Part shown: piece by piece, positions 6,813-21,685 of the stretch
Layout of the letters: every line of letters starts with the position of its first letter
Numbering within the stretch: the stretch's first letter is position 1
Origin: Candidatus Omnitrophota bacterium
GTDB lineage: Bacteria; Omnitrophota; Gorgyraeia; VGKH01
Length of the DNA stretch: 64,000 nucleotides
Assembly: GCA_022703055.1 (NCBI GenBank)
Contig: JAKLEP010000001.1
Location: 218,850-282,849 of the forward strand
Direction: 5' to 3'
The notes under the pieces: model-generated
Databases searched by the model: none
What the model saw: only the letters and a program-made list of their open reading frames with translations
What the model was told of the DNA's origin: nothing
Made by a program: the position numbers and the translations under genes

Positions 6813-6830
6813 AAATCGAGATTTATTAAC

Positions 6831-6859
6831 TTGACAGTCAGAATAAAATAACCTATTAT
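6831..6859 (+). promoter_or_regulatory. sigma70-type promoter of the RiPP-like operon
   Basis: TTGACA (6831-6836), 17-nt spacer, TATTAT (6854-6859). 37 nt upstream of ATG 6896. No other promoter-like or terminator-like element seen until 15605. Confidence 0.6.
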
Positions 6860-6895
6860 AAGAAAAGAAGATAGAGTAATTTAGAAATTTACCCG

Positions 6896-7405
6896 ATGAA
6901 TAGCATTGAGTTGGTAAGAGAAGCAGTCATTGCCAATGGCAAAGTCATTCTCCCCTTTAGCGGAAAAAGCATGTATCCAACCTTAAAAGATGCGATGGTC
7001 GTGACCATTTCCCGCATTTTGCCGGAATCAATCAGGATCGCCGATATCATAGCCTACCAAGAAAATGACCAAGTAGCAGCTCATAGGGTCATAAAAATCA
7101 AGAGAGACAACGGCGCAATTTCTTTTATAACCAAAGGCGATAACCAGCCTTTCGGCGGTATAGCCGAGGTACGGCAGAAAGATTTAATCGGCAGGATAAA
7201 TTGCGCGTTTTACGCCGATTCCGACGGAAAGAATATCTTAAATGAGAATATAATTTTCCGGTTATTTTACGTTGGCCTTGGCAGGATATATTTATTTTAC
7301 AGAAAAGCTTTAAGAGACCATATGCCCGATTCGCTAAGGTTATTTTTAAAGACATTGGTTGGCAATATTTACTGTTGTTTTCAAGGCTGTTCAAGCAAAG
7401 GTTAA
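6896..7405 (+). CDS. S24/S26 (clan SF) serine peptidase, SipW/archaeal-signal-peptidase-like, without N-terminal anchor
   Basis: 169 aa. SGKSMYPTL (Ser25) matches the signal-peptidase box B nucleophile. AAHRVIKIK (His63, Lys67/69) and ITKGDNQ (aa 78-84) match the HRV / TKGDN boxes of Ser-His type S26B enzymes. The first 20 aa are not a TM helix. Confidence 0.55.
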   Translation: MNSIELVREAVIANGKVILPFSGKSMYPTLKDAMVVTISRILPESIRIADIIAYQENDQVAAHRVIKIKRDNGAISFITKGDNQPFGGIAEVRQKDLIGRINCAFYADSDGKNILNENIIFRLFYVGLGRIYLFYRKALRDHMPDSLRLFLKTLVGNIYCCFQGCSSKG

Positions 7406-7408
7406 TTT

Positions 7409-8554
7409 ATGGTCACCCAATCACAAGAAGAATCCAAGAATAAGTTTAAGCTTAATACCGTTTATCTGTATTTTTCCCAATACTGCAATTTGCGATGCCG
7501 CCATTGCTGGATAGATCCCAAATTTTCTGCAGATAAAACCGTTAAAGACGACGAAGCGGATATCAAGACCATTATTTCCGGCCTCGAAGAGTGCAGGGAA
7601 TTAGGCATGGCTTCAGTCAAGGTTACCGGCGGGGAACCTTTTATCAGGGAAGACATATTTGAGCTGTTATCATATTGTAAAGATAATAAAATCGCTTTGA
7701 ATTTTGAGACCAATGCGACCCTGATTACAAAAAAAGAGGCCAGGGCATTGAAGGAAGCCAATGTCGATATGGTCGCTGTTTCCCTTGATGGCCCCAATGC
7801 GCGTATCCACCAATTATTAAGAGGCGTAGACGGTTCATTTGATAAAGCCATAGAAGGCATAAAATTTCTCCGAGAGGAAGGTTTAAACGTCCAAATAATA
7901 ATCTCCCTTTGGAGAGAAAACAAGGATTACGTTAAATCTACTATTGATTTAGCTCGTTCGTTGGGCGCAAGCTCGGTTAAAGTGAATATCCTGAATTGCG
8001 TAGCCAGGGCCGGCAAACTAGACCAGAAAAAAGAAATCCTGAGCGTAAAAGAGATCTTAGATTTCTACCGCGAGCTTAAAGAAAAGCTTAGCAAGGAGCC
8101 GCCCTTTGCCGTTACTTTCGATATTCCGCCGGCATTCAAGCCCCTGAAAAACGGCAGATTAGGCGATTTGAATTTCTGCGGCATAATGGGAATATTAGGA
8201 ATCCTAGGAAACGGCAGAATTTCAATTTGCGGTATAGGCAGCGTTGTTGATTCGTTAGTATTAGGAGTTATTGGGCAGGATAGAATAAAAGATATTTGGG
8301 ATAATCATCCGATATTGAAGGATATCAGAGAAAATGTCCCTAAGAATCTACAGGGCGTATGCGGAAAATGCATATTAAGATTCTACTGTTTAGGAAAATG
8401 CCGCGCCGAAGCTTTTTACAATCACGGCTCGCTTTTATCGCCTTTGTCTTTCTGTCAGCAGGCATATGACCAGGGCCTTTTCCCGGTTTCTCGGTTACAG
8501 GATGAATTTGGCTTGCAAGACTGCAATGAAGAACTAGCAACAAGCCCGGCGTAG
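7409..8554 (+). CDS. radical SAM / SPASM-domain peptide maturase (1 of 2)
   Basis: 381 aa. CX3CX2C at C26/C30/C33 (YCNLRCRHCW). C-terminal SPASM signature CGKCILRFYCLGKC (Cx2Cx5Cx3C) plus upstream CG...ICG. Starts 3 nt after the peptidase stop. Confidence 0.85.
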   Translation: MVTQSQEESKNKFKLNTVYLYFSQYCNLRCRHCWIDPKFSADKTVKDDEADIKTIISGLEECRELGMASVKVTGGEPFIREDIFELLSYCKDNKIALNFETNATLITKKEARALKEANVDMVAVSLDGPNARIHQLLRGVDGSFDKAIEGIKFLREEGLNVQIIISLWRENKDYVKSTIDLARSLGASSVKVNILNCVARAGKLDQKKEILSVKEILDFYRELKEKLSKEPPFAVTFDIPPAFKPLKNGRLGDLNFCGIMGILGILGNGRISICGIGSVVDSLVLGVIGQDRIKDIWDNHPILKDIRENVPKNLQGVCGKCILRFYCLGKCRAEAFYNHGSLLSPLSFCQQAYDQGLFPVSRLQDEFGLQDCNEELATSPA

Positions 8555-8600
8555 TTAAAAATAGATTATTAATTATTTATCAGAAAGAAAGGAGAAACGC

Positions 8601-8927
8601 ATGAAGAAAGATAGCCAAAGAGGGATAAAACAAAGATATGAAGCCCCCTTAGTTTTTGATATGGGCAGCCCCAACATAAACGTCCTAGGCGTAACGGGTA
8701 AAATGTGTTATACCGGTTCCGGTGGAACAGCTAAATGCCAGGCCGGTTCCGGCGGCTTGGCGGGGATTTGTTCATCGGGCGCAAGCGTTGCTTCTAGCTG
8801 CGCGACAGGAAATGGTTTCGGCAGTTCAAGCTGCGCACCCGGCAGTGCACAAACGACCTGCGGCACGGGAAAGAATGCCAGTGGCACTTGCAGCAAAGGC
8901 AGCCCAGTAATGATCATACAAGAATAG
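8601..8927 (+). CDS. candidate RiPP precursor peptide, Cys/Gly/Ser-rich with 7 C-x-x-G repeats
   Basis: 108 aa. Strong SD AAAGGAGA (8588-8595). Leader-like aa 1-35 containing YEAPLVFDMG. Core aa 36-100 has Cys at 36, 46, 57, 67, 78, 87 and 97, each as C-x-x-G. Located between the two SPASM genes. Confidence 0.7.
   Translation: MKKDSQRGIKQRYEAPLVFDMGSPNINVLGVTGKMCYTGSGGTAKCQAGSGGLAGICSSGASVASSCATGNGFGSSSCAPGSAQTTCGTGKNASGTCSKGSPVMIIQE
8706..8900 (+). repeat. coding repeat: seven ~30-nt (9-11 codon) C-x-x-G units
   Basis: TGT/TGC codons at 8706, 8736, 8769, 8799, 8832, 8859 and 8889. CCGGTTCCGG recurs exactly at 8713-8722 and 8743-8752 (30-nt offset). My hand count gives about 58% GC over 8701-8900, against AT-rich flanks. 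Confidence 0.75.
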
Positions 8928-8937
8928 ACGGTAAATT

Positions 8938-10011
8938 ATGTATTCTGCGCCTTTGAATATATGTTTTGGGATTACCAGCCGTTGCAATTTAAGTTGCAAG
9001 CACTGCATAAACAGGAATATCCCCCATACAGATCCTGATTTGACTACCGAAGAACTATTTCGGGTTATTGATCAGTTGGGCGATGCTAAGGTGTTTCAGG
9101 TGAATATTTTTGGTGGGGAACCATTGACCCATCCTGATTTCTTCCTGATTGTTGAGCGACTGAATAAATATCCCATCAGGCTTACTTTAAACACTAACGG
9201 CACTTTGATTGACAGCAAGATAGCCAAGCGGTTAAAAGAACATAAGATAAGGGGAGTCACGGTGAGTTTCGACGGTTCCTGTCCCGAAGTTATGGACGCG
9301 GCTCGGGGTGTAGGTACTTTTAAGAAAAACATTAAAGGCATAGAGGCTCTTTTGTCAGAAGGTATCTACGTGTTATTGTCCGCGACATTAACCAAGATAA
9401 ACTATAAAGACACGCGGGGCATGACGATGCTGGGTAAAAAATTGGGCGCAAACCTCATCCGTTTTAACCACGTATTTTTCGCTGGCAATGCCGCCTGTTT
9501 TGCCAAAGAGATCTATCTTTCGCATGATGAAGAGTTAGGTACGATTGAAGAAATCCACCGGCTTAACAAAGAATTCCCCGGGTTTATCGATAATTCCAGC
9601 ACTTATTTGTGCCAGAGAGGGAAGTTGGAAGAAATGAAGGATTACGAGCCAGCTTACGATAAAATATCTGTTCCTCCTTGCGGTGCGGCACAGGATAAAT
9701 GCAATATCAGGCCCGACGGCTGGATAACGCCTTGCGAAATAATCTGGGAAGCCAAATGCGGCAACCTAAGAAAGCAAAGTTTTCTTGATATCTGGAGGAA
9801 TTCCAAGCTGATGAATGAATTCAGAAAGACATTAGAGATAGATTTGAACACAATACCCGAATGCAAAGGTTGCAAGTACCAGCTTATCTGTTTTATCGGC
9901 CATCGCTGCGATCCTTATTATTATCCCGGAGGGATCAAGGATCGTTCTGTTTATTGCTGGTTAAATAATGATAAAAAGAAAGGGAAGGTTCTAGATGTCG
10001 TCAAGCGATAA
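8938..10011 (+). CDS. radical SAM / SPASM-domain peptide maturase (2 of 2)
   Basis: 357 aa. CX3CX2C at C16/C20/C23 (RCNLSCKHC). C-terminal Cys clusters CGAAQDKCNIRPDGWITPC and CKGCKYQLICFIGHRC. Starts 10 nt after the precursor stop. Confidence 0.85.
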   Translation: MYSAPLNICFGITSRCNLSCKHCINRNIPHTDPDLTTEELFRVIDQLGDAKVFQVNIFGGEPLTHPDFFLIVERLNKYPIRLTLNTNGTLIDSKIAKRLKEHKIRGVTVSFDGSCPEVMDAARGVGTFKKNIKGIEALLSEGIYVLLSATLTKINYKDTRGMTMLGKKLGANLIRFNHVFFAGNAACFAKEIYLSHDEELGTIEEIHRLNKEFPGFIDNSSTYLCQRGKLEEMKDYEPAYDKISVPPCGAAQDKCNIRPDGWITPCEIIWEAKCGNLRKQSFLDIWRNSKLMNEFRKTLEIDLNTIPECKGCKYQLICFIGHRCDPYYYPGGIKDRSVYCWLNNDKKKGKVLDVVKR

Positions 10012-10261
10012 TCCAAAGGTGAGTTCGAAGATTGTTTACAGGGAAGAATCAGAAGGCGCCCTTTTATTTGACCCGGATACAGGCGCAGTAAAAATTTTAA
10101 ACGATACGGGTAAGTTTATTTGGGCTAACCTCGATGGAAAAACAAACAGGGATTCTTTGGTGGCTAAAATCAAGGAAGCTTTTGATATTTCTGATACAAA
10201 AAAGGTCAAAGAAGACCTGGATAAATTCTTAAGCGATTTGAAGAAGTTAAAGTTTATATAG
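9995..10261 (+). CDS. PqqD-family protein (RiPP recognition element), copy 1
   Basis: 88 aa. ALLFDPDTGAVKILNDTGKFIWANLDGKTNRDSLVAKI... follows the PqqD pattern (x-L-f-d...g..h.LN..a..iW..ldG). Overlaps the upstream SPASM gene by 17 nt. SD AGGGAAGG at 9981-9988. Confidence 0.8.
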   Translation: MSSSDNPKVSSKIVYREESEGALLFDPDTGAVKILNDTGKFIWANLDGKTNRDSLVAKIKEAFDISDTKKVKEDLDKFLSDLKKLKFI

Positions 10262-10307
10262 TTTTCTTTTTAACCCCCGCCTTTTAAGGATCAAAAGGTA
10301 TTTTTGT

Positions 10308-11444
10308 ATGCACGACCTAAAATTAAGCAAGTATATGTATGAGACGTTTGCGATAGGCTCAAATAATCAGCTGCCTATTTCGTCTGTGTGTAATGGGCAA
10401 TGTATTTTCTGCTCTAACAACATGAATCCTTTTACAATTTACCGTGAAGGTTTTCGCCCCCTGGCAGATATTAAAAAGGGCCTGGCGCTTTTAAATGTCG
10501 GGCCGAATGAAGAAATCCGTATCGGCGATAGCCTGCCTGGCAGGATTTCCGAGGGGGAGGCGCTTTTACATCCCGATATCTTAAAGGTTTTAAGGCTGAT
10601 AAGAGAAAGATTCCCCGGCAATGTCATCCAGATGAATACCAACGGGACAATCCTTGAGAAAAGTTTTATAGAGAAATTGATTCCTTTCAAACCGCTCAAA
10701 TTTACCATATCCTATCACTCCGATAATCCGAAATTCTGGTGCAAGATTTTTAAACTTAAGGAGAACAAATATAAAATAGTGCGGGAAGCGTTTTTTAATC
10801 TTTCAAAGAACGGTTTTATTATACAGGCGGCTTTGGTGCCCCTGCCGCATCTGGTTGGCTACGACGATATTGAGAATACTATCAAAGCGATAAATTTTTA
10901 TACTAAGGATGTAATTGTTTACGCTCCAGGCTACAGTTTCAAAGCCACGAAGGAATTAAAAGCATTCCTTAAGTCAGACTACGCGGAGTTGAGCCGTTTT
11001 ATTATAAAGATGAGAAAGAAATACGGCATGAATTTGGAGCTTTTCCCGGACCTCCTCAAGCCGATAGAATTTTTTCCCTACCGTGTAATGCAGAATACTT
11101 TTTTTGCTAAATTCAAAAACGTGCTTTGGCTTTTTTCTGAGGCGGCTTTCGAAAAAGGAAAAAAGGCTTTGCAGGAATGGAATGATTTTGTGCCAAACGA
11201 ACACCATGCCTTCCTTGCAAAGAATGATACCTACCGCGGCAATATTATCTGCAGCGGTTTATTAATGGTGAAGGACTACCGCAAGGCTATCAAAAAGGCT
11301 TTATCAGAGTTTAAGAAACAAGGTATTAAGATCGATTTAATAGTGTTGCCTTCAAATTCATTCGACAGGTATGGTGATGATTTACAAGGAGAGAATCATT
11401 CGAAGTTAAATGAAGAGTTTAAGCTTCCAGTTTGGCTTCGTTAA
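10308..11444 (+). CDS. radical SAM protein without SPASM tail (third rSAM of the operon)
   Basis: 378 aa. CX3CX2C at C28/C32/C35 (VCNGQCIFCSNN). No C-terminal Cys cluster. The C-terminal GNIICSGLLMVKDY segment reminds me of DUF512-type radical SAM proteins, but that is unverified. Confidence 0.65.
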   Translation: MHDLKLSKYMYETFAIGSNNQLPISSVCNGQCIFCSNNMNPFTIYREGFRPLADIKKGLALLNVGPNEEIRIGDSLPGRISEGEALLHPDILKVLRLIRERFPGNVIQMNTNGTILEKSFIEKLIPFKPLKFTISYHSDNPKFWCKIFKLKENKYKIVREAFFNLSKNGFIIQAALVPLPHLVGYDDIENTIKAINFYTKDVIVYAPGYSFKATKELKAFLKSDYAELSRFIIKMRKKYGMNLELFPDLLKPIEFFPYRVMQNTFFAKFKNVLWLFSEAAFEKGKKALQEWNDFVPNEHHAFLAKNDTYRGNIICSGLLMVKDYRKAIKKALSEFKKQGIKIDLIVLPSNSFDRYGDDLQGENHSKLNEEFKLPVWLR

Positions 11445-11478
11445 CAACCATAATGCCCTACCAAACCGTTAAATAAAC

Positions 11479-11751
11479 ATGAAAGTTAGACAAGCAAAAG
11501 ATATTTGCACTGGAATTTTCCCGGATGGCCTGGTGATATTCAGTCTAAAAACCTATTGTGCGCATGCATTGAATGACAGTGCCTCTTTGATTTGGAATTT
11601 TTGCAAGAAATCCAGGGCACCAGAGGAAATCGCAAGATTTATCGGCAGAAAATACACGATTGATTACTCTCTTGCCTTAAAAGACGCAGAGAAGTTTATC
11701 GGGCTCCTAGGAAAAAGGGGGCTTCTTGAGAAAACAATGTCTCATGAATAA
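11479..11751 (+). CDS. PqqD-family protein (RiPP recognition element), copy 2
   Basis: 90 aa. ...YCAHALNDSASLIWNFCKKSRAPEEIARFIGRKY..DAEKFIGLLGKRGLLE fits the PqqD winged-helix pattern. Confidence 0.7.
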   Translation: MKVRQAKDICTGIFPDGLVIFSLKTYCAHALNDSASLIWNFCKKSRAPEEIARFIGRKYTIDYSLALKDAEKFIGLLGKRGLLEKTMSHE

Positions 11752-12673
11752 TTTAACTTTAAACATAGCAAATATAAAATTAGACACAGCTTATAGGAAT
11801 ATCGTATCGATCCCTGATCCCTTTAGCGCTTTTAGAGCCAAGACAAATAATCCCGACAAAAATATCTGGCATCTTGAATCTTGCGGCATGTATAAGAAAG
11901 ATAAGCTTAAGGGCAAAGATTTAGCCGCCTGTAAAAAGAAGATTGGTTCAATACGAGAGAGATTCGAATCGGTGAATAGTAAATTATCAGATTGGAAAGA
12001 GAAAGGATATAATCTGGCTCGTCTTCCGTCGTATTATGCTCCTGGCCTTCATCGAATATCGTTTTATTTAAACGACCCGGTAAAAATAGATTTTAAAAAA
12101 AGGCAAATCAAACATTTCTATTTGAGGAATGGCGCCGTTAAACGGTTGGGAGACCTTGACTTTCGTTTAATTTCTTTTGCGTACTCGCAAATCTTGGCTT
12201 CTCAAGAGGGGATGCTTGTCCATTGCGCTTGCGTTGTAAGAAATAAAAAGGCTTATCTTTTCTTTGCCAAAGCGGGCGGCGGCAAGACAACGGTTGCCAA
12301 GTTGTCAAAGAAATATTGTGTTTTAGGAGATGATATAATCGCGGTCAGAAGAAAGAAAAATGGCTTTATTGCATTTCCTACTCCCTGGAGACAAAAAAAA
12401 TTTATCAATCCTAGCCCTAAAACATACGCACCAGTAAAAGCGGTGTTCTTTCTGCATAAATCAAAAAATATATATTTTAAGCCTCTTGCTGCGCAGGAGG
12501 CTTTGATGAGGCTTATTTCGCGGTGCATCCACTTTTTTTTATACACTGAAAATGAGCAGGCTAAAAAGGTATTTTTAACTGCTACGGATTTCTTTAAGAA
12601 AGTCCCGTCCTATGATATGTATTTTAGGAAGAGGGAAAATTTCTGGCCAGCATTAGAAAGAATCATAAAATGA
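11744..12673 (+). CDS. HPr kinase C-terminal-like P-loop protein (putative peptide kinase)
   Basis: GMLVHCACVVRNKKAYLFFAKAGGGKTTVAKLSKKYCVLGDDIIAV parallels the HprK_C core (h.vlv...g.gvLi.G.sG.GKS...L...lvaDD). I chose ATG 11744 (ATGAATAA overlap with the PqqD-2 stop) over the track TTG at 11726. Confidence 0.6.
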   Translation: MNNLTLNIANIKLDTAYRNIVSIPDPFSAFRAKTNNPDKNIWHLESCGMYKKDKLKGKDLAACKKKIGSIRERFESVNSKLSDWKEKGYNLARLPSYYAPGLHRISFYLNDPVKIDFKKRQIKHFYLRNGAVKRLGDLDFRLISFAYSQILASQEGMLVHCACVVRNKKAYLFFAKAGGGKTTVAKLSKKYCVLGDDIIAVRRKKNGFIAFPTPWRQKKFINPSPKTYAPVKAVFFLHKSKNIYFKPLAAQEALMRLISRCIHFFLYTENEQAKKVFLTATDFFKKVPSYDMYFRKRENFWPALERIIK

Positions 12674-14433
12674 ATAAATACGGTTTTAAAAATCTTTTTA
12701 ATTTTCTGAAATTTCTTAAGCCATATTGGAAAAAAGAAGTCTTCGTCTGGCTTTTGACTTTTATTGTGTCGCTGCTTTCGCTTGTCAACCCTATTATTGC
12801 AAAATTAATTATAGATAGGGCGTATCTGGGGAGGGATCTTGGGATTTTTATCAAGCTTGTCATATTAGCAGGTTTGATTTTTGTAATCTCGAATATTGCC
12901 GATATTGTATCTCAGCTTATCTCCGAATATATCGCTTCAAGGACAAAGTTCGATTTACAAAAAAAGATTTTTAGAAAAATAGATAATTTATCTTATAGTT
13001 TCTTTCAGAAGAAGACATCGGGAGAATATATTTACAGGATAAATAATGAAGCAGCGCAAGTAGCTACTTTTATGACGACTTTTTTCCCTAGGCTGCTAGA
13101 TATCATCCCGAGGCTCTTGCTTACCATCGCCATACTATTGTATTTAAATTGGAAGATATGCGTTTTAATCCTTGTTCTGACCTTGTTTTTATATATTCCA
13201 AATTTATTGTTAATCAAAAAGATAATGAAGAAATCGCAGCAGTTGTTGGAAAGCGCTCAGGATATCCTTGAGACCGCCAGAGAAATATTCTCCAATATGC
13301 AGGTAGTTAAGATTTTCGCTAAAGAAAAATATGAGAACCGGACTTTTATAAGCCGTCTCATAAATGACCTAAGAATTGAGATAGCCGACGCCAGATTGCA
13401 GCTTTGGAGTTCCGTCATAAATAATTGGATTAATAGATTAATTTTAGCGGCTATAACTATTTACGGAGGATATAGCATTATCAAGGGCAGTATGACGCTA
13501 GGAAGTTTCACCGCCATTATGATGTATATTGGCCAATTGGTTGGTTTACAGGGAACCTTGAGCAGTTTTTTTGTCAGTTTTTCAATAGGCAATATTTCTA
13601 TCAATAGAATTGCTGAGATTCTAGATTCTTGGCCGCAGGAGGCCGAAGATAAAGATGCGAGGGACTATTTATTGCCTTCCGGGAGAATCGAATTTCAAGG
13701 CGTAAGCTTCGGTTATTATCCCGATAAAAATGTCGTAGATAATTTGAGTTTCAAAATAGACGGTGGCTTGTCAGTAGGCCTAGTTGGGGCTTCCGGCACA
13801 GGAAAGACAACGATAGTCAATCTTGCGGTAAAACTGTACCCGATATCTAGAGGTAAAATATTCATCGGAGATAAAGATATAAAATTTATTAAGAATAATT
13901 CTTTGCGCAGTCAAATCGGCATGGCGATGCAAAAGCCTATTCTTTGGAATGATACCGTGCATAATAATTTAATTTACGGAAACCCCAAGGCGACAAAAGA
14001 CGAGATAGAACGCGCCTGCCGTATCGCCTGCGCCGATGAATTTATCCGGGATCTACCGCAGCAACTTCAAACCACTGTAGATGAGGCAGCTATCAGGCTT
14101 TCCGAAGGGCAGAAGCAGAGGATTTCGCTGGCCCGCGCCATTATCAAGAATCCGAAGATATTAATAATAGATGAGGGAATGTCTAGTCTGGATTCTCAGA
14201 CCGAAGACAGGATTATAGACAATTTAAGACGGGAATGCAGGGATAAAACTATCGTCGTGGTTTCCCACCGTCTATCTACGGTTAAGAAGCTAGACCTGAT
14301 TTATTTTCTGGAAGCTAAGGATAGAATAAGCATAGGTTCTCATGCGCAATTAGTAAAAGATAACGCAAGATACAAGGCTTTATTTGCCAGTCAGCTTGTA
14401 GAAGAAGGGCTAAGTTTAAAATTTGATGTTTAG
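12670..14433 (+). CDS. ABC exporter, fused permease/ATPase (MsbA/ABCB type), no C39 peptidase domain
   Basis: 587 aa. Six-TM N-terminal half. Walker A GASGTGKTT, signature LSEGQKQR, Walker B ILIIDEG. ATGA overlap with the upstream gene. Confidence 0.85.
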   Translation: MNKYGFKNLFNFLKFLKPYWKKEVFVWLLTFIVSLLSLVNPIIAKLIIDRAYLGRDLGIFIKLVILAGLIFVISNIADIVSQLISEYIASRTKFDLQKKIFRKIDNLSYSFFQKKTSGEYIYRINNEAAQVATFMTTFFPRLLDIIPRLLLTIAILLYLNWKICVLILVLTLFLYIPNLLLIKKIMKKSQQLLESAQDILETAREIFSNMQVVKIFAKEKYENRTFISRLINDLRIEIADARLQLWSSVINNWINRLILAAITIYGGYSIIKGSMTLGSFTAIMMYIGQLVGLQGTLSSFFVSFSIGNISINRIAEILDSWPQEAEDKDARDYLLPSGRIEFQGVSFGYYPDKNVVDNLSFKIDGGLSVGLVGASGTGKTTIVNLAVKLYPISRGKIFIGDKDIKFIKNNSLRSQIGMAMQKPILWNDTVHNNLIYGNPKATKDEIERACRIACADEFIRDLPQQLQTTVDEAAIRLSEGQKQRISLARAIIKNPKILIIDEGMSSLDSQTEDRIIDNLRRECRDKTIVVVSHRLSTVKKLDLIYFLEAKDRISIGSHAQLVKDNARYKALFASQLVEEGLSLKFDV

Positions 14434-15604
14434 CAGAAAGACTTCCTCCATAAAATCCTCTCAAATTGAAAATGATTTTTTGATTTCTTGCAGCAGAATA
14501 AATCTCGATGAAAAACAGCGTAGCGAGATAAACAGATTGGCAGGCCTTATATCGAACTGGCGCTCTATAACTTATCGGGCATTAAGGCAGGGCGTCGGTT
14601 CGTTTCTCTATAGCCATTTGTCGGCAATCGGCGAAATTTGGTCAAACTTGTCGGATGACAGTCGTGTTAGCCTGAAGCAGGTTTATTATAATACCTTGAT
14701 GAGGAACACCTCGATTAAGATTGAGCTGCAGAAAGTCATTGCATTATTAAATCAAGCCGATAAGCAAGTTATTGTCTTAAAAGGAGCCGCCCTTTTAGAT
14801 ACCGTATACCAAAATATTGCTCTTCGTCCGATGGTTGATATTGACTTATTGGTAAGAAGGCGTGATTTATCGGAAGTAAAGAATATCTTACAGGATTACG
14901 GATACTGCAAACCCGATTTTCTATCCGATGATAGCCTCGAGAAATTCGGAGGAGAAATCCATCTCTGTAAAAAAGATATATTCCTCGACATACATTCAAG
15001 CCTGTCCCAGTATGAGCGTTTTCAAAATGTTTTCAGGATTGATCTCGACGAGGATATCTGGGAAAAATCGGTCTTAGTCAAAACCGAAGCGGAAGAAAAG
15101 AAAATACTTTGCCCCAATCATCTGCTTATTCATCTATGTCTTCATCAAGCAATGGCTCATTATTTTAGGGGTTTATTTAGGTTTTCTGATCTGCGCGAGA
15201 CGATTTTAACTTATCAGAAAGAGTTGGATTGGAAATATATTTTCGAAAAGGCGGGAGAATATAAAATCAAAAAGATTATTTACTGCAGCTTGAATTTGAT
15301 GGAAGGGATTTTCGGTCCTGTTGTCCCAAGAGATGCTTTAGAGAGGTTGAAACCCCGGCGCATGTTCTTTTCTTTTTCCATAAGGAAGATCCTAAGCCTG
15401 CCGGATCAAGAAATCGGCTTCAGAAAATCTGTAGCTCAGCTTTTTTTAATGGATAGCGTAATGGCTTTACCCATAATTATATTTAGAGGCCTTTTTCCTT
15501 CCAATGAGTGGCTTAAATACAGATACGGTATTAATAAAAATAAAGATTTGGTTTTTTATCGTATCTTTCATCCCTTTATTACCATATTTAATATTCTTTC
15601 CTAA
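14426..15604 (+). CDS. uncharacterised nucleotidyltransferase family protein (PF14907/NTP_transf_5-like)
   Basis: VLKGAALLDTVYQNIALRPMVDIDLLV matches the hallmark LKG.al....Y....R.m.DiDlLV. Overlaps the ABC stop. ATG 14426 preferred over TTG 14423. Confidence 0.65.
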   Translation: MFSRKTSSIKSSQIENDFLISCSRINLDEKQRSEINRLAGLISNWRSITYRALRQGVGSFLYSHLSAIGEIWSNLSDDSRVSLKQVYYNTLMRNTSIKIELQKVIALLNQADKQVIVLKGAALLDTVYQNIALRPMVDIDLLVRRRDLSEVKNILQDYGYCKPDFLSDDSLEKFGGEIHLCKKDIFLDIHSSLSQYERFQNVFRIDLDEDIWEKSVLVKTEAEEKKILCPNHLLIHLCLHQAMAHYFRGLFRFSDLRETILTYQKELDWKYIFEKAGEYKIKKIIYCSLNLMEGIFGPVVPRDALERLKPRRMFFSFSIRKILSLPDQEIGFRKSVAQLFLMDSVMALPIIIFRGLFPSNEWLKYRYGINKNKDLVFYRIFHPFITIFNILS

Positions 15605-15635
15605 CTCTTTCTTTTGCAAAAGTTTAAGTCTTTTC

Positions 15636-15664
15636 TTGACTTTAAAGTAATTATTAGATATATT
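15636..15664 (+). promoter_or_regulatory. sigma70-type promoter of the polysaccharide locus
   Basis: TTGACT (15636-15641), 17-nt spacer, TATATT (15659-15664). 31 nt upstream of ATG 15695. Confidence 0.55.
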
Positions 15665-15694
15665 AAAAGATAAGTATTGGAAAAATAATAAATT

Positions 15695-16756
15695 ATGCAT
15701 AAATTTATGAAAATTTATGACAAAAGGTTTTTTATTGCCATTTTAATTTCTATTTTAGTGAGTTCTTGTGCAACCGCAAAAAGAGAAAAGCAGATTTCCA
15801 GCGATTTAAGAAAAGCCGCATTAAAACTCTCCCAAAAAAATAGTCTTTCCGGGACCAATTATTATACCGTTGACCAAGATGACGTCTTGGATATAACAGT
15901 TTGGAAATCATTAAGTACAAAAAAAGGCGAGGCAGAGGAATATTTTCTTAATGATGGCGATAAGCTGGAGATTTCCGTCTGGCAATGGCCTGATTTATTA
16001 AAAGACGTGGTTGTACGTCCTGACGGGAAGATCTCTTTTCCTTTGATCGGTGATGTCGTTGCTCAGGGTAGGACCTTAACCGACTTGGATAACGAAATTA
16101 CTGAAAAATTATCCGCTTTTATCAAGTCTCCAGAAGTTTCAATAATGATAACGGCTTTCGGAACAGCACAAGAGGGTTTTTTGAGGCCGGAGATAAATTT
16201 CGTCAAAGTTAATGAGTTGAGTACGGAGCAGACGGTGGCTCCCGACGGGAATATTTATTTACCTTTATTCGGAGCAGTCCAGGCCGGAGGCTTAACTTTA
16301 AACCAGCTAAGTTTGAAAATTAAGGAAAAGGCCCTCCAGTTTGTACAGAATCCGGAAGTATCGATTAGCATCAGACAGTTCGGAGGAAGAAAGCTTATTG
16401 TCCTGGGCGAGGTTCTCGACCCGGGAACATATGTCTTTACCGGAGAGGCAACAGTATTGGAGGCTATCGGCTGGGCCGGAGGTTATACCAGAAACGCCGT
16501 TTTAAAGAATGTTTTTGTCATAAGAGGCGATTTGGCTAATCCCCAAGTTTATACTTTGAATTTGCGCGATGTACTGGACAAAAAAAATCTGAGCCAGGAT
16601 TTGAAGATACAGGCTAGAGACGTAGTGTATGTGCCTAGAACTGTTATCTCCGAGGTGAGCCATGTTCTGATGCAGCTGCTTAGTCCTCTAACGAGCTCTT
16701 CTTCGGCGGTATCTGGAATTCAAACAATCAGGGCTGGCACAGGTCCTAAGAAATAA
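15695..16756 (+). CDS. polysaccharide export outer-membrane lipoprotein (Wza/Poly_export + SLBB)
   Basis: Lipobox-like ILVSSC near the N-terminus. VRPDGKISFPLIGDVVAQGRTLTDL and the second copy VAPDGNIYLPLFGAVQAGGLTLNQL are typical Poly_export/SLBB motifs. Confidence 0.8.
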   Translation: MHKFMKIYDKRFFIAILISILVSSCATAKREKQISSDLRKAALKLSQKNSLSGTNYYTVDQDDVLDITVWKSLSTKKGEAEEYFLNDGDKLEISVWQWPDLLKDVVVRPDGKISFPLIGDVVAQGRTLTDLDNEITEKLSAFIKSPEVSIMITAFGTAQEGFLRPEINFVKVNELSTEQTVAPDGNIYLPLFGAVQAGGLTLNQLSLKIKEKALQFVQNPEVSISIRQFGGRKLIVLGEVLDPGTYVFTGEATVLEAIGWAGGYTRNAVLKNVFVIRGDLANPQVYTLNLRDVLDKKNLSQDLKIQARDVVYVPRTVISEVSHVLMQLLSPLTSSSSAVSGIQTIRAGTGPKK

Positions 16757-16757
16757 T

Positions 16758-18677
16758 ATGCCACAATACGAATTAAACATACAAGATTATTTAAGAATTT
16801 TAAGAAAGCGTAAATGGATAATTCTTCTTACCATGGTTTCTACTTTTATCGGTATCATAACTTATAACAATCTGCAGACACCGGTTTATAGCTCAAGCGT
16901 TTCCATAAAGATAGAGGTACGTCAGACGGCTATAACCGCTCTTACCGAGACGATATTAGGCGGAGGCTACGATGTCTTAGCTACCGAACAGAAAGTCCTC
17001 AGCGGCCGTCCGGTGGTGGAGGAAGCTGCAAGGCGCTTACAGCTTTTCGCAAAAAATGCTTCCCAGGACGAAATTGATGTTGTAGTAAGCAATATACAGA
17101 GCGGCTTGGAATCGACAACCGACCAAGTTTCTTCGATTATAGTACTGACTGTGCAATCAGACCAGCCTAAGAAGGCGCGCGATATCGCCAATATGATAGC
17201 GGAGGTCTATATCGAAGAAAATTTAAAACAGAGGAGCAAAGAAGCAACCCAGGTGCGGGAGTTTATCGAGAAACAATTATCCGATGTCGAAACAAGGTTG
17301 CATGCTTCCGAAGATGCCTTGGCAAAATTCAGGGAGAAAGAGGCGGTTACGGGAGAAGCGGTGGGTCTTGAGAATCGTCTTGGTACTCTAAAGTCGCAGT
17401 TATCTGAATTATTGACTAAGGCGACAGAAAAACATCCTGATGTCCAGCGTCTGGAAGAGCAGGTTAGGGAAGTCGAGGACGCGCTGAAGAAATTGCCAAA
17501 GTCCGAATTGGAGTTTGCCAGGCTGCAGCGCGATGTCAATGTTAACGAGAAGCTCTACACGATGCTTAGAGAAAAATTCGAGGAATCCAGGATTTCCGAG
17601 AAAGGGATGGTTTCCCAGGCGACAGTAATTAATCCGGCGGTAGAGCCTCAGGTGCCTATCAAGCCAAATAAAAGATTTGCTGCGGTCGTCGGCATAGTGG
17701 TCGGGTTGATGCTAGGATTGATTTTGGCATTTGTTACTGAGAGTTTGGATACTTCCATCGGAACGATAGAAGATGTCGAGAATTTATTAAAAGTCCCGGT
17801 TTTAGCCATTATCCCGTCGATTAGAACAGAAGTGGCAGATGAGAAGCCTTGGTGGAAGCGCGGCCTCTTTCCTCAAATGCAGCCGACCAAAGAGGAAGAG
17901 AGAGAGGCGGCGCTGTCTGTTTTATTTAAACCTTTATCCCAAATTGCGGAGTCATACAGAATATTAAGGACTAATCTGAAGATATCTGATACTAAAAAGG
18001 CGTTTCTTATTACAAGTTGCGGTCCTCAGGAGGGCAAGACAACCGTCCTGGTTGGGCTAGGTATAACTTTGGCGCAGAAGGGGATAAAGACGCTTATAAT
18101 CGATTCCGATCTCAGGCGCCCGTCAGTGCATAAAAAACTCGGCATTACCAAGGAATCGGGAATAAATGAAATAATTAATAAATCTATGACTTGGCAGGAT
18201 GCGATTAAAGGCCTGCCCGATATTCTGATGGGGGAACTAGGTTTTGACGAAGTTCTAAAGAACCCAGGATTGGATAATTTAAGCATAATTACCTCCGGCG
18301 CATCTTCTAATAACCCTTCAGAGTTGTTGGGCTCTAAAGCCATGGAGTCATTGATAGCCGAGTTTAGAAATAATTTTGATGTAATTCTATTTGATTCTCC
18401 GCCGAGCTTGGCCATAACCGACGCTTCGGTATTAGCGCCCCTGCTTGATGGAGTGGTGATTGTTTATGAGATGGGTAGGACAGCAAGAGCCGCGTTATTA
18501 AGAGCAAAGATTCAATTACAGGCTGTTGGCGCTAACGTCCTTGGGGTTGCGCTTAACCATATTAAGCCGGAAAGCTACGTTGCAACAGGTTATTACCCCT
18601 ATTACTATCATTATAAGTATAAATATGCTGATAAACAAAAAGAGGAAAAGGAATCTCAACATCAGGAGTCAACATAA
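16758..18677 (+). CDS. polysaccharide co-polymerase / BY-type tyrosine autokinase (Wzc/GumC-like)
   Basis: 639 aa. Wzz-like N-terminus with TM and coiled-coil, then a second TM (AAVVGIVVGLMLGLILAFV). P-loop domain with GPQEGKTT, IIDSDLRRP and ILFDSPP. C-terminal Tyr cluster GYYPYYYHYKYKY. Confidence 0.8.
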   Translation: MPQYELNIQDYLRILRKRKWIILLTMVSTFIGIITYNNLQTPVYSSSVSIKIEVRQTAITALTETILGGGYDVLATEQKVLSGRPVVEEAARRLQLFAKNASQDEIDVVVSNIQSGLESTTDQVSSIIVLTVQSDQPKKARDIANMIAEVYIEENLKQRSKEATQVREFIEKQLSDVETRLHASEDALAKFREKEAVTGEAVGLENRLGTLKSQLSELLTKATEKHPDVQRLEEQVREVEDALKKLPKSELEFARLQRDVNVNEKLYTMLREKFEESRISEKGMVSQATVINPAVEPQVPIKPNKRFAAVVGIVVGLMLGLILAFVTESLDTSIGTIEDVENLLKVPVLAIIPSIRTEVADEKPWWKRGLFPQMQPTKEEEREAALSVLFKPLSQIAESYRILRTNLKISDTKKAFLITSCGPQEGKTTVLVGLGITLAQKGIKTLIIDSDLRRPSVHKKLGITKESGINEIINKSMTWQDAIKGLPDILMGELGFDEVLKNPGLDNLSIITSGASSNNPSELLGSKAMESLIAEFRNNFDVILFDSPPSLAITDASVLAPLLDGVVIVYEMGRTARAALLRAKIQLQAVGANVLGVALNHIKPESYVATGYYPYYYHYKYKYADKQKEEKESQHQEST

Positions 18678-18705
18678 TAATTTATATTTTAGGATTGTTT
18701 ATTAG

Positions 18706-18735
18706 AAGGGGATAATTGTCCCCTTTTTATTTTTA
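18706..18735 (+). terminator. intrinsic terminator-like hairpin after wzc-like gene
   Basis: AAGGGGA (18706-18712) / TCCCCTT (18719-18725), 6-nt loop, then TTTATTTTT. It ends 3 nt before the next ORF's ATG. Confidence 0.55.
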
Positions 18736-18737
18736 CT

Positions 18738-20171
18738 ATGTTTCAAAATAACTTCCTTAAAAACAAAAATAATTTTTTATCGCTTAATTTTGGCCAGATA
18801 GATAGCAGGGCTTTGCTTTTGCTTTTGGTTTTAGTGGCGGTATCAGCGCTTATTGGCTTTAAAATCGCGGCTTTTCATCCGCTTGTTCCGATAGCTCTTT
18901 TGGCGGCAATCGCGATAGGTATCGCAACTTTAGTAAATACAAACCTGGGCTTAACGATTTTGATTTTTTCTATGCTTTTATCGCCTGAAATACCCATAGC
19001 TCAGACTGCAGAAAGAGCGGTAACCGTCAGGATCGAAGATTTCTTAATCATGGCCGTATTTTTTGCCTGGTTTGCCAAGACAGCAGTAAGAAAAGAATTA
19101 GGGCTTTTACGCAAAACCCCGCTTAATAAGCCCATATTTGCTTATTTGGCTATCAGCATTTTTTCTACTGGCCTAGGAATAATGAGCGGAGATGTCAGCG
19201 CGAAGATAGGTTTCTTCTATATTCTTAAATATGTAGAATTTTTCATGATATTTTTTGTTTTTGTCAACAATCTCGATGATCCAAAACAAATCAAGATATT
19301 TATTTTCTGTTTTTTGCTTGTGTCTTTCATTATAGGGGTTTTGACTTATGCCCAGATAGGCAAGATTGACCGTCCTTCGGCACCTTTTGAAGGAGAGCAT
19401 CCTGAACCCAATACTCTCGGGGGTTATCTTGTGTTGACAATGGCTGCGGCCCTGGGGCTATTATTGTATTCAAAGGATGCGAACGTAAAAATTATTCTGA
19501 CAGGATTAGTATGTTTTAATATCTATCCGCTTCTGATGACTTTATCCAGGAGTTCATATTTAGCTTTTATACTGATCTACTTGGTTCTTGTTTTTTTTAC
19601 AAGAAGACACAGATTGGTTATGATTGGTCTTTTAGTTTTTGCTATTTTATTTTTGCCATTTTTTATCCCCGAAAGAGTTAAGGATAGAATTCTCTATACC
19701 TTTAGCTATGGTTCTCATTATACTTTCGGTGGCGGAAAGATTAGGCTTGAGAAATCTGCGGCAGCGAGAGTTGAAACTTGGCAGCGGGCCATGGATTTCT
19801 TGTCCAAAAAACCTTTCTTTGGATTTGGCGTCACGGGCGTGCCTTTTATGGATTCCCAATATGCTAGGCTTCTTTCTGAAATCGGGATTGTCGGTTTCCT
19901 GATATTTCTTTGGCTGATTTTTGCGATAATAAAAAGCACTTGGTATATATTTAACAATTCAATTGATTATTTTACCCAGGGCCTAAGCCTTGGATTCTTG
20001 GCTGGATTTATGGGGATGCTGTTGATGGGGCTGGCGGCCAATGTTTTTGTTATAGTCAGAATTTCCGAGCCTTTATGGTTTCTGTGCGCCTGCGTTATGG
20101 CCTTGCCAGATATTTATCCTATAAAGGCACAGCAAGAAATTAATGGCGATGTCCAGACTGATTCAACCTAA
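18738..20171 (+). CDS. O-antigen polymerase/ligase-like polytopic membrane protein (Wzy-type)
   Basis: 477 aa with 10 or more hydrophobic segments and a large loop region, the typical Wzy_C/O-antigen ligase family architecture. Start uncertain, since no SD is present and a hairpin abuts the ATG. Confidence 0.55.
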   Translation: MFQNNFLKNKNNFLSLNFGQIDSRALLLLLVLVAVSALIGFKIAAFHPLVPIALLAAIAIGIATLVNTNLGLTILIFSMLLSPEIPIAQTAERAVTVRIEDFLIMAVFFAWFAKTAVRKELGLLRKTPLNKPIFAYLAISIFSTGLGIMSGDVSAKIGFFYILKYVEFFMIFFVFVNNLDDPKQIKIFIFCFLLVSFIIGVLTYAQIGKIDRPSAPFEGEHPEPNTLGGYLVLTMAAALGLLLYSKDANVKIILTGLVCFNIYPLLMTLSRSSYLAFILIYLVLVFFTRRHRLVMIGLLVFAILFLPFFIPERVKDRILYTFSYGSHYTFGGGKIRLEKSAAARVETWQRAMDFLSKKPFFGFGVTGVPFMDSQYARLLSEIGIVGFLIFLWLIFAIIKSTWYIFNNSIDYFTQGLSLGFLAGFMGMLLMGLAANVFVIVRISEPLWFLCACVMALPDIYPIKAQQEINGDVQTDST

Positions 20172-20192
20172 AATTAATTAATAAAAGATTAT

Positions 20193-21644
20193 ATGGAACT
20201 AACCAACAGGGCAATCAAAGGGACATTTATTGTTGCAAGCAGCACATATCTTATCGACTTAATTTCGTTTTTGCGCTCTATAGTCTTAGCGAGGCTTTTG
20301 GTTCCGGAATATTTTGGGATTGTAGCCTTGGCTTATTTTTTCTACAACATAATCAGGCAGCTCAAGGAGTTTAATCTAGACAGCGCCCTTATCTATAAAC
20401 CCGATGTCAGCAAAGAAGATTTTTCTACGCATTTTGTTCTGAAGTTGCTTTTGGCTTTGTTTACTCTTTTGGTTATCGCTATCGCTTCTCCGGTTTTAAC
20501 AAGATTTTACGGGCCTGACGTCACAAAGATAATTTTAATATTTGCATTTTTTTCTATATTCCAGGAGGCTGCCGCTACTCCCCGTGTAGTCCTGGAAAAA
20601 GAGTTACTATTCTCCCGGGTCGCGATAATTAATATCGTAAAAGAAATAATCAAAACCATTGTTCCAATCTGGATGGTATTTTTGGGCTTTGGTTTGTGGA
20701 GTCTCGTAGCCATGGCAGTTCTGGATATGGCGGTTCCTTTCTTTGGTTTTTTGGTAACAAAAACGTGGAAGCTGTCTTTGCGGTTCAATAAGAAGATCGC
20801 CATTTGGTTTTTGAAATACAGTTCTTATATGTGGATATCCGGTTTGTGCATAACGCTAATGTATGAATTTGACGATTTCCTCGTCGGAGTTATAGTTGGG
20901 ATGGCGGCGTTGGGTTTGTATTCAAAGGCTTACGATTTCTCTAAATTGCCGACGCAGCTTGTAACCCATATAGTAAACAGGGTTAGTCTCCCTTTGTATT
21001 CTAAATTGAAAGATAATAAACAGGAACTTTCCGTAGCCTTTAATAGTTTCTTGTATTTTATATTTAGGCTGACGCTTCCTTTGGCGCTGGTGCTATTTAT
21101 CGTCGCGCCAGAGTTTATATACTTTTTTCTGGGGGTAAAATGGTCAGGCGCTATATTGTTATTGAGGTTGTTAATTATTTATTCGGTTTTGCGCTCGATT
21201 CAGGATGATTGCTCCGCCTTGTTTTATGGAGTGGGTAGACCTAAAATCATGACAGCTATCACGTCGCTTCAAGCTATCATGATTGTTGTTTTGGGGCCGT
21301 TTTTTATTTATTTTTATAGAGTAAACGGGGCCGCTATATTCGTAGATTTGATGACCATAATCGGCATTATATTAATTTACAAAAATGTATCGGATTTAGT
21401 TTATGTTGAATATAGAAAGAATTTTCTTGTTCCTTCAATAAGCGCCTTGTTAGGATTGCTGGCTGTTTTTGTCTTAATGAAAAATTGCTACATTTCAGCT
21501 TTGCTCGTCAGATTAATTATAAAATTGTTTTTGTTTATAGTAGTTTATACGGGCGCGCTTATTTTATTTTCCAGAGATGAATTATCTCAGAACTTTAAGC
21601 ACGTTTTTGAAATATTAAAGCCAGAACTCTTGCGCAGAAGATAG
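20193..21644 (+). CDS. MOP-superfamily oligosaccharide flippase (Wzx-like), copy 1
   Basis: 483 aa polytopic membrane protein. The N-terminal region (AIKGTFIVASSTYL...ARLLVPEYFGIVAL) is typical of polysaccharide biosynthesis (PST) flippases. Confidence 0.6.
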   Translation: MELTNRAIKGTFIVASSTYLIDLISFLRSIVLARLLVPEYFGIVALAYFFYNIIRQLKEFNLDSALIYKPDVSKEDFSTHFVLKLLLALFTLLVIAIASPVLTRFYGPDVTKIILIFAFFSIFQEAAATPRVVLEKELLFSRVAIINIVKEIIKTIVPIWMVFLGFGLWSLVAMAVLDMAVPFFGFLVTKTWKLSLRFNKKIAIWFLKYSSYMWISGLCITLMYEFDDFLVGVIVGMAALGLYSKAYDFSKLPTQLVTHIVNRVSLPLYSKLKDNKQELSVAFNSFLYFIFRLTLPLALVLFIVAPEFIYFFLGVKWSGAILLLRLLIIYSVLRSIQDDCSALFYGVGRPKIMTAITSLQAIMIVVLGPFFIYFYRVNGAAIFVDLMTIIGIILIYKNVSDLVYVEYRKNFLVPSISALLGLLAVFVLMKNCYISALLVRLIIKLFLFIVVYTGALILFSRDELSQNFKHVFEILKPELLRRR

Positions 21645-21685
21645 ATGTTTAAATTCAGATTTTATTTTGCAGAAAGGATCTCTTT

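Follow-up and report, generated by a model that had tools for sequence, protein, structure and literature searches.

What do a kinase-like P-loop protein, an ATP-binding cassette (ABC) exporter and a nucleotidyltransferase-fold enzyme contribute to a ribosomal peptide pathway that is built around radical S-adenosylmethionine (rSAM) enzymes? The question is raised by a 64,000-nucleotide stretch of DNA from Candidatus Omnitrophota bacterium (contig JAKLEP010000001.1 of assembly GCA_022703055.1, positions 218,850 to 282,849; hereafter the window), in which a tightly packed operon of the + strand (~6896-15604) has as its distal part: (i) a ScmC-family P-loop protein of the PEPCK/HprK superfamily (gene 1, 11744..12673), (ii) a half-size ABC exporter (gene 2, 12670..14433) and (iii) a nucleotidyltransferase-fold enzyme of family PF14907 (NTP_transf_5; gene 3, 14426..15604). 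Phosphorylation is rare among ribosomal peptide natural products, and in the literature searched HprK-family kinases have been shown to act on such peptides in lasso pathways only. The reading developed here, in which belief and doubt are about evenly balanced, is that the three genes may provide leader-guided Ser/Thr phosphorylation, PF14907-dependent addition onto the phosphate and, finally, export, in an rSAM/SPASM system that resembles the SynChlorMet (SCM) cassette.

In its fold, the gene 1 product is a P-loop protein of the PEPCK/HprK type, and the lasso-kinase catalytic motif is complete in it. Foldseek searches with its AlphaFold2 (AF2) model (pLDDT 84) recover, at probability 1.00, PEPCK (1ayl, 5.6e-7) and HprK/P (1knx, 3.8e-6; 3tqf, TMt 0.51); the similarity to HprK-type kinases that an earlier, sequence-only reading of this DNA had proposed is thus found at the level of structure. 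A broad family profile also matches PEPCK in the PDB (4.4e-6), aligned across the His, P-loop and Asp-Asp positions. Sequence-only searches of the PDB, with the single protein or a 13-sequence profile, gave no significant HprK match, and the link to PEPCK and HprK is therefore drawn only from the structure search and the broader profile. The Pfam PEPCK_ATP match is below threshold (17.5 bits), and neither Hpr_kinase_C (PF07475) nor TIGR00679 matches at E<=0.01. Membership in the Hpr_kinase_C family is ruled out by this lack of a match; the term HprK_C-like, as used in the sequence-only reading, is apt for the superfamily fold and not for the Pfam family; by sequence, the protein matches PEPCK best. 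HprK/P and ATP-dependent PEPCK share with gene 1 the P-loop fold and the arrangement of His, Walker A and Asp-Asp residues. Unlike these enzymes, which act in carbon catabolite control and gluconeogenesis, the gene 1 protein is found in a peptide maturation context and has a different N-terminal domain, which is absent from homologs of the L003 type (homologous loci are given L numbers and proteins P numbers).

The family assignment is ScmC. Pfam PF27840 (PF27840.1, 'ScmC') is precomputed for the identical protein P0001 and all close homologs, and TIGR04249 (ScmC) is the best NCBIfam match (54.9 bits against a cutoff of 125). The catalytic set comprises H160, A175-x-x-G178-x-G180-K181-T182 and D196-D197; the motif YLFFAKAGGGKTT...VLGDDIIAV quoted in the sequence-only reading is present in the translation. 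H160, G180, K181, T183 and D196 are invariant across 58 divergent relatives. In a larger sample, a strict P-loop plus Asp-Asp pattern is passed by 110 of 164 relatives; the remainder consists mainly of proteins that keep the His and P-loop and show LSDE or a comparable acidic pair, plus a few that are fragmentary or without the motif, such that the His/P-loop/Asp-Asp (or Asp-Glu) set is kept almost always. A 13-homolog profile, conserved over residues ~135-307, retrieves ~10,875 representative proteins at E<=1e-3. The 58 diverse relatives match ScmC (52), PEPCK_ATP (32), HprK_rel_B (30) and HprK_rel_A (28) models, and true HprK models are matched by three of them, weakly. Unlike the 28-30 relatives that match the HprK_rel_A/B models, the window protein itself has no such match at E<=0.01. 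Together with the residues described below, this conservation makes the gene 1 product a probable leader-dependent Ser/Thr peptide kinase.

The residues in question are those of the characterized lasso kinases. In BsfK, the equivalent positions are H148, G163, G166, G168, K169, S170, D186 and D187, most of which proved important on mutagenesis, and the D158A/D159A variant of PsmK is inactive. The same H...GxxGxGK[ST]...DD motif occurs in the window protein, with an identical His-to-Lys spacing of 21 (H148...K169 in BsfK); only the first glycine differs, being Ala (A175). The Lys-to-Asp-Asp spacing is 15 in gene 1 and the rSAM-linked relatives versus 17 in the lasso-type and HprK_rel_A-type proteins, and a clade profile gives 104-119 bits for rSAM-linked ScmC proteins of other phyla versus 17 bits for the lasso-type kinase of L011. 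From the spacing and the score gap, the ScmC and lasso-type kinases are taken as two sister clades. The L011 kinase also falls into PF27840 and aligns to the window protein over the His, P-loop and Asp-Asp region. Domain architecture varies within the family: the P-loop domain occurs alone (~177 aa) in L003 (10031-10564) and in L015 and L016, where the N-terminal domain of 135 residues that the window protein has is missing, and the P-loop domain forms the C-terminus of two natural fusions to an HxsC-like rSAM domain, P0024 (769 aa) and P0029 (790 aa).

Gene 3 is assigned to PF14907 with confidence. Its Pfam match (2e-43; 149.2 bits against a cutoff of 31.2) spans profile positions 4-248 of 249, and the ALRPMVDIDLLV motif, by which the sequence-only reading had recognized the family, is present in the translation. 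K119-G120, R134, D138, D140 (DxD), H240 and D255 are invariant in 41 homologs of 26-71% identity. The AF2 model (pLDDT 88.6) matches MenT1, TM1012, LnuA and ANT(2'')-Ia by Foldseek (TMt 0.63-0.68); FKRP, a glycan-acting phospho-alcohol transferase, is among the weaker matches. The enzyme thus has a Pol-beta-type nucleotidyltransferase fold with the G[S/A]...DxD metal site. The lasso enzyme PsmN shares the DxD center and the ANT(2'')-like fold relative, and in an in vivo study the phosphoserine of pseudomycoidin no longer received its +162 Da addition when this DxD was mutated. What the sequence-only reading stated of lasso-peptide kinases and of PsmN-type additions onto the phosphate agrees with the published work. 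PF14907 domains are also found fused to an S24 peptidase in the actinobacterial rSAM locus L004 (8956-10239) and to a lasso B2 protease (P0247) in the Nitrospinota locus L011 (1299-2864). These partners are two unrelated types of leader peptidase, and the fusions tie PF14907 to peptide processing.

The case that gene 1 acts on a peptide is made by its neighbors. The gene directly upstream, PqqD#2 (11479..11751), encodes a PqqD-type recognition protein (Pfam PqqD 2.4e-9; sole NCBIfam match the lasso PqqD chaperone model, 9.9e-5), and its stop codon (TAA, 11749-11751) overlaps the ATG of gene 1 at 11744 (ATGAATAA at 11744-11751). PqqD#2 forms a conserved orthogroup of its own and directly precedes ScmC in L001, L002 and L006. 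A second recognition protein, the ScmD-like PqqD#1 (9995..10261; Pfam PqqD 2.2e-14; TIGR04248 ScmD 46 bits), likewise matches a lasso PqqD chaperone model (6.7e-8). In lasso systems the PqqD-type B1 proteins recognize a YxxPxL leader motif; the window precursor carries YEAPLV (Y13-E-A-P16-L-V18), and a YxxPx(L/V/I) leader is common to both kinds of precursor. BsfK, in turn, depends on the leader, and its recognition protein stimulates it strongly. Because of the overlap of PqqD#2 with the kinase-like gene, the lasso PqqD-model matches, the shared YxxP leader and the leader dependence of BsfK, a peptide is the predicted substrate.

The remaining junctions are as tight. ATGA (12670-12673) is shared by the ScmC-like stop and the exporter start, and the exporter stop (TAG, 14431-14433) overlaps the ATG of gene 3 at 14426 (ATGTTTAG at 14426-14433); the coupling by overlapping start and stop codons reported for all three junctions in the sequence-only reading is exact in its coordinates. 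Upstream TTG codons at 11726 (gene 1) and 14423 (gene 3) are the starts used by public models (315 and 393 aa, respectively). Alignments of gene 1 homologs begin at ATG 11744, and under either choice the overlap with the upstream gene is kept for genes 1 and 3. Such coupling is not peculiar to the three genes, since genes are tightly packed throughout 6896-15604, and the partner of the kinase-like gene in the first overlap is a PqqD gene; thus, the trio does not stand alone as a unit. The module proposed earlier stands insofar as its genes overlap and co-occur, and has to be widened to take in PqqD#2 and the S26 peptidase as parts of the functional unit. Gene 2 is an exporter, as had been proposed, with a transmembrane domain (ABC_membrane, 118.9 bits) and an ATPase domain (ABC_tran, 93.4 bits) and without a C39 peptidase domain; its matches to MsbA, HlyB and TAP-like models are all below cutoff.

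Where would the phosphate go? The precursor (8601..8927, + strand; 108 aa, Cys/Gly/Ser-rich) is recognized by its composition, leader motif and homologous precursors. It has 16 Ser and 8 Thr, 24 in all and not the ~27 counted earlier, and 22 Ser/Thr lie after the leader. Its core is rich in Gly, Ser, Thr and Ala, with seven Cys at a spacing of 8-10 residues, and ends in ...MIIQE. Ten precursors (window, L001, L002, L003, L006, L015, L018, L019, L004 and L008) share a (K)YxxPx[VIL] leader, and in seven of them the first Cys is 22-23 residues past the Tyr. The eight long cores have Cys at intervals of mostly 8-12 residues, and some Cys pairs are adjacent; the short L004 and L008 cores differ. 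No precursor of the ten ends in Ser (the endings are E, G, V, G or A), and phosphorylation of a C-terminal Ser, as in paeninodin, is ruled out for the clade. The idea that Ser/Thr richness offers many acceptor sites is unproven, as the characterized relatives are regiospecific: PadeK and PsmK act on the C-terminal Ser and BsfK on the internal Ser3. A G-x-[S/T] tripeptide is found 17 to 19 residues past the Tyr in seven of the ten precursors, including an actinobacterial one (G30-V31-T32 in the window), and could serve in cleavage recognition or take up the phosphate.

Lanthipeptide synthetases are well known to phosphorylate residues and then to eliminate the phosphate. The seven Cys and 22 post-leader Ser/Thr of the core are compatible with such a fate here, in which phosphorylation or nucleotidylation would activate Ser/Thr for beta-elimination and thioethers of the lanthionine type would form from the resulting dehydro-amino acids and Cys, as they do in lanthipeptides of classes II-IV. 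This route is nonetheless judged very unlikely: no lyase or LanC-like cyclase homolog is found among the assigned open reading frames (ORFs) of 6896-15604, Cys cross-linking is already accounted for by two SPASM rSAM enzymes, and the L004 core, which has few Ser and no Thr, is still accompanied by ScmC and PF14907. Phospeptin provides an example in which elimination fails.

The association of the genes is recurrent. The order ScmC-ABC-PF14907 is found in eight distinct loci (window, L001, L002, L003, L012, L014, L015 and L016), among which, all of Omnitrophota type, ScmC identity falls to ~39%; the recurrence argues that the arrangement is not due to chance. A metagenome scan with a narrower alignment gave six loci. 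Outside this group the order loosens: (i) L004, from Actinobacteria, has PqqD, PqqD, rSAM, ScmC, a 53-aa precursor, a B12-rSAM, PF14907 and the S24::PF14907 fusion, (ii) L008 has S24, PqqD, ScmC, a 41-aa precursor, PqqD-rSAM-SPASM, rSAM-PDZ and PF14907, (iii) L010 has ScmC, S24, PqqD, SPASM and PF14907, (iv) L018 has two PqqD, two rSAM/SPASM, ScmC, a precursor and an S26 peptidase, (v) L019 has ScmC, a precursor, an S26 peptidase, ABC and PF14907, and (vi) in L011 the lasso-type kinase of PF27840 adjoins the B2::PF14907 fusion. Of the distant loci reached by way of ScmC, L004 and L019 carry PF14907, and only on two short contigs was it not seen; conversely, ScmC is present in three of the four loci found through PF14907. 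The recurrent unit is PqqD, ScmC, PF14907 and an S24/S26 peptidase, with or without an ABC exporter, joined to varying rSAM enzymes.

This unit contradicts the supposition that no tie of the module to rSAM/SPASM peptides had been made. The kinase-like protein belongs to a family named ScmC after the SynChlorMet rSAM/SPASM cassette (the origin of the name is taken here from NCBIfam and Pfam model names only), fusions of rSAM to ScmC exist (P0024 and P0029), and ScmC, PF14907, PqqD and S24 genes lie beside rSAM genes in Actinobacteria and other bacteria. ScmC-type proteins and their association are already cataloged by NCBIfam and Pfam under the SCM name and are, thus, not categorically new. The window itself satisfies the SCM-like co-location, with an rSAM/SPASM pair (7409-8554 and 8938-10011), PqqD (9995-10261) and ScmC (11744-12673) on one strand and in one operon. 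The best NCBIfam matches of these four proteins are the SCM models ScmF (350 bits), ScmE (163), ScmD (46) and ScmC (55), yet the equivalog cutoffs (400, 400, 100 and 125, respectively) are reached by none. As all four scores are below cutoff, the locus is a divergent relative of SynChlorMet and canonical membership is ruled out. Unlike the four-protein set of the SCM models, the window has two PqqD proteins and a third rSAM enzyme. L018, considered as a candidate canonical SCM cassette, was rejected on scores that are likewise below the cutoffs.

The likeness to lasso clusters is confined to the accessory genes. The lasso accessory K/N/D genes (PadeK; PsmK/PsmN/PsmD; Bradymonas BsfK/BsfN/BsfD) encode the same three protein types and are accompanied by a PqqD-type recognition protein. 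Unlike lasso clusters, the window has two rSAM/SPASM enzymes as its class-defining enzymes and a leader peptidase of the S26 type, and unlike lasso precursors its precursor is ~108 aa long with seven Cys and no C-terminal Ser. Neither a lasso cyclase (Asn-synthetase-like C) nor a B2 protease is found among the ORFs of 5685-23170, all of which are assigned to other families; identity as a lasso cluster is ruled out, as neither gene is in the operon or its flanks. The HPr-rel-A system (TIGR04352, TIGR04355 and TIGR04353) also pairs an HprK-related P-loop protein with a PqqD chaperone, as in the window; the match of TIGR04353 to PqqD#1 (2.3e-5, 25 bits) is below the cutoff of 35.

From these parallels we infer a pathway in which a PqqD-type protein, perhaps the PqqD#2 that is translationally coupled to the kinase gene, would bind the YEAPLV leader. 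The ScmC-family enzyme is then predicted to transfer phosphate from ATP to one specific Ser/Thr while the precursor still bears its leader, with T32 of the G-x-[S/T] tripeptide as the candidate site. The DxD metal center of the PF14907 enzyme may add a group to this phosphate, either a hexose (as for PsmN) or a nucleotidyl or phospho-alcohol unit. The two SPASM enzymes would cross-link the regularly spaced Cys residues to form thioethers, the S26 peptidase would cleave the leader and the ABC transporter would export the product, although the steps could follow one another in another order.

Several points weigh against this pathway. Gene 1 is only distantly related to the proven lasso kinases, as seen from the 17-bit profile score and the Lys-to-Asp-Asp spacing of 15 versus 17. 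It is below the ScmC equivalog cutoff (54.9 versus 125 bits) and lacks an Hpr_kinase_C match, and its core sequence is nearest to PEPCK. The first Walker glycine is Ala (A175) in this clade, and the equivalent change in BsfK, G163A, greatly cut solubility and reduced activity. The precursor is without the C-terminal Ser acceptor used by PadeK and PsmK. For gene 3, the authors of the PsmN study could not say whether PsmN itself is the transferase. Experimental work on the ScmC clade, or on PF14907 outside this one lasso study, was not found in the literature searched. Finally, the conservation of ScmC is that of a core component and not of an optional tailoring enzyme, and fusions to rSAM occur; an obligatory or non-tailoring role fits this pattern equally well.

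Such a role is the main competitor, and as a complete account it is considered possible though doubtful. The ScmC-like protein would be an obligatory part of an SCM-type core, acting either as an ATP-driven scaffold or chaperone or as a kinase that provides a transient phosphate needed for rSAM cross-linking or leader cleavage, and PF14907 would work with the peptidase. ScmC occurs in all SCM-like loci seen, the minimal L018 among them, counts among the four cassette proteins that NCBIfam names and is fused to an HxsC-like rSAM domain in P0024 and P0029. PF14907 is fused to two unrelated leader peptidases (S24 in L004 and lasso B2 in L011), and ScmC and PF14907 stay constant across loci that differ in their optional tailoring genes (third rSAM, methyltransferase fusion, PMT_2 genes). 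By contrast, the complete kinase catalytic set is strongly conserved and the nearest characterized relatives leave a stable phosphate on the product. In addition, the P-loop domain alone is kept in L003, L015 and L016, which suggests that catalysis and not scaffolding is essential.

A further consideration is the genes that follow. Directly downstream on the + strand (15695..21644) are genes for Wza, Wzc, a Wzy_C-domain protein and a Wzx flippase (Pfam Poly_export, GNVR/AAA_31, Wzy_C and Polysacc_synt_3), together with a CapD/PglF-like dehydratase also downstream; these are syntenic neighbors and only possible members of the system. Wza-Wzc directly follows the PF14907 gene in seven loci (window, L001, L002, L003, L012, L015 and L016), and genes for a Wzy_C-domain protein and a Wzx flippase belong to this downstream set in the seven as well. 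In the Omnitrophota relative L006 (12727-18562), PMT_2 genes separate PF14907 from the ABC gene; three PMT_2 genes (GT-C, protein O-mannosyltransferase-like) surround PF14907 and replace Wza/Wzc. In L010 two GT2 genes follow PF14907, such that glycosylation genes repeatedly adjoin this family. Upstream of the operon are an HD_5 protein (5685-6812) and a divergently oriented PpiD-like gene. The HD_5 gene is relocated between Wzc and Wzy_C in L003 and L015, still within the locus. That the gene set stays together despite rearrangement hints at a link between peptide and polysaccharide export.

The least probable of the accounts weighed here takes this adjacency to mean that the kinase-like and PF14907 genes serve the polysaccharide pathway, acting on a sugar, lipid carrier or polymer, and are merely co-transcribed with the peptide genes. 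The seven loci with Wza-Wzc, the PMT_2 genes of L006, the GT2 genes of L010 and the FKRP match of the nucleotidyltransferase model all point in its direction. Against it, ScmC and PF14907 occur with PqqD, a precursor and a peptidase in the polysaccharide-free loci L004, L008 and L019 and in the lasso-type L011, PF14907 is fused to peptidases and the gene to which translation of the kinase is coupled encodes a PqqD protein for peptide recognition. A combined form of the peptide pathway, speculative and unlikely as a whole, is a so far undescribed kind of ribosomal product, a multi-thioether rSAM/SPASM peptide that would be phosphorylated at T32 by a PqqD-guided ScmC kinase, decorated by PF14907 through a phosphodiester and, once exported by the ABC transporter, tied as a Ser/Thr-rich peptide to the Wzx/Wzy-type machinery, for example as a glycan acceptor, anchor or matrix component. 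If true, such a tie would explain the joint retention of both gene sets across Omnitrophota despite the rearrangements. The constant adjacency to polysaccharide export genes also hints at a cell-surface role for the product and not that of an antibiotic.

With or without this tie, the same accessory set (a YxxP leader read by PqqD, an HprK-superfamily kinase, PF14907 and an ABC exporter) is combined in several phyla with rSAM/SPASM enzymes and an S26 peptidase, which points to a portable leader, recognition, kinase and nucleotidyltransferase module that may move between peptide classes. No description of rSAM systems that share the leader and recognition logic of lasso pathways appears to exist in the searchable literature. 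The locus offers a tractable route to a first biochemical function for two large families, ScmC (~10,900 representative clusters) and PF14907.

The proximal genes of the operon, all on the + strand, complete the system. The first encodes a SipW/archaeal-type signal peptidase I (S26/S24; 6896..7405), which is the probable leader peptidase; it scores 63.4 bits against TIGR02228 (cutoff 51.85), carries GKSMYPT and HRV motifs and has S26 counterparts in L001, L002, L003, L006, L015, L018 and L019. A ScmF-like rSAM/SPASM maturase (7409..8554) with Pfam Radical_SAM and SPASM matches (TIGR04251 ScmF, 350 bits against 400) follows. Its ScmF-like counterpart in L002 (5424-7949) has a ~470-aa C-terminal extension with an ILDVGSGLG motif typical of S-adenosylmethionine-dependent methyltransferases. 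Beyond the precursor gene is the ScmE-like rSAM/SPASM maturase (8938..10011; TIGR04250 ScmE, 163 bits against 400; SPASM E=2e-10), and in L003 a PqqD#1-type domain is fused to the ScmE-like rSAM. The third rSAM enzyme (10308..11444; Radical_SAM 6.2e-14), a variable accessory gene product without SPASM, has weak similarity to HxsC and HpnH. The window and L012, the locus most closely related to it, alone have this gene; L001, L002 and L006 lack it, and in them both PqqD genes adjoin; thus, it is regarded as an optional tailoring gene.

The best promoter-like site is TTGACA-17-TATTAT at 6831-6859, and a terminator-like site lies at 15636-15664. As the counts of the two scans do not exceed shuffled expectation (33 versus 27.2±5.8 for promoters and 14 versus 11.3±3.1 for terminators), both sites are only hints. 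For the same reason a hairpin at 8736-8762 within the precursor coding sequence, which is GC-rich (7 G-C among its 10 pairs) and has a T-rich run after it, may mean nothing.

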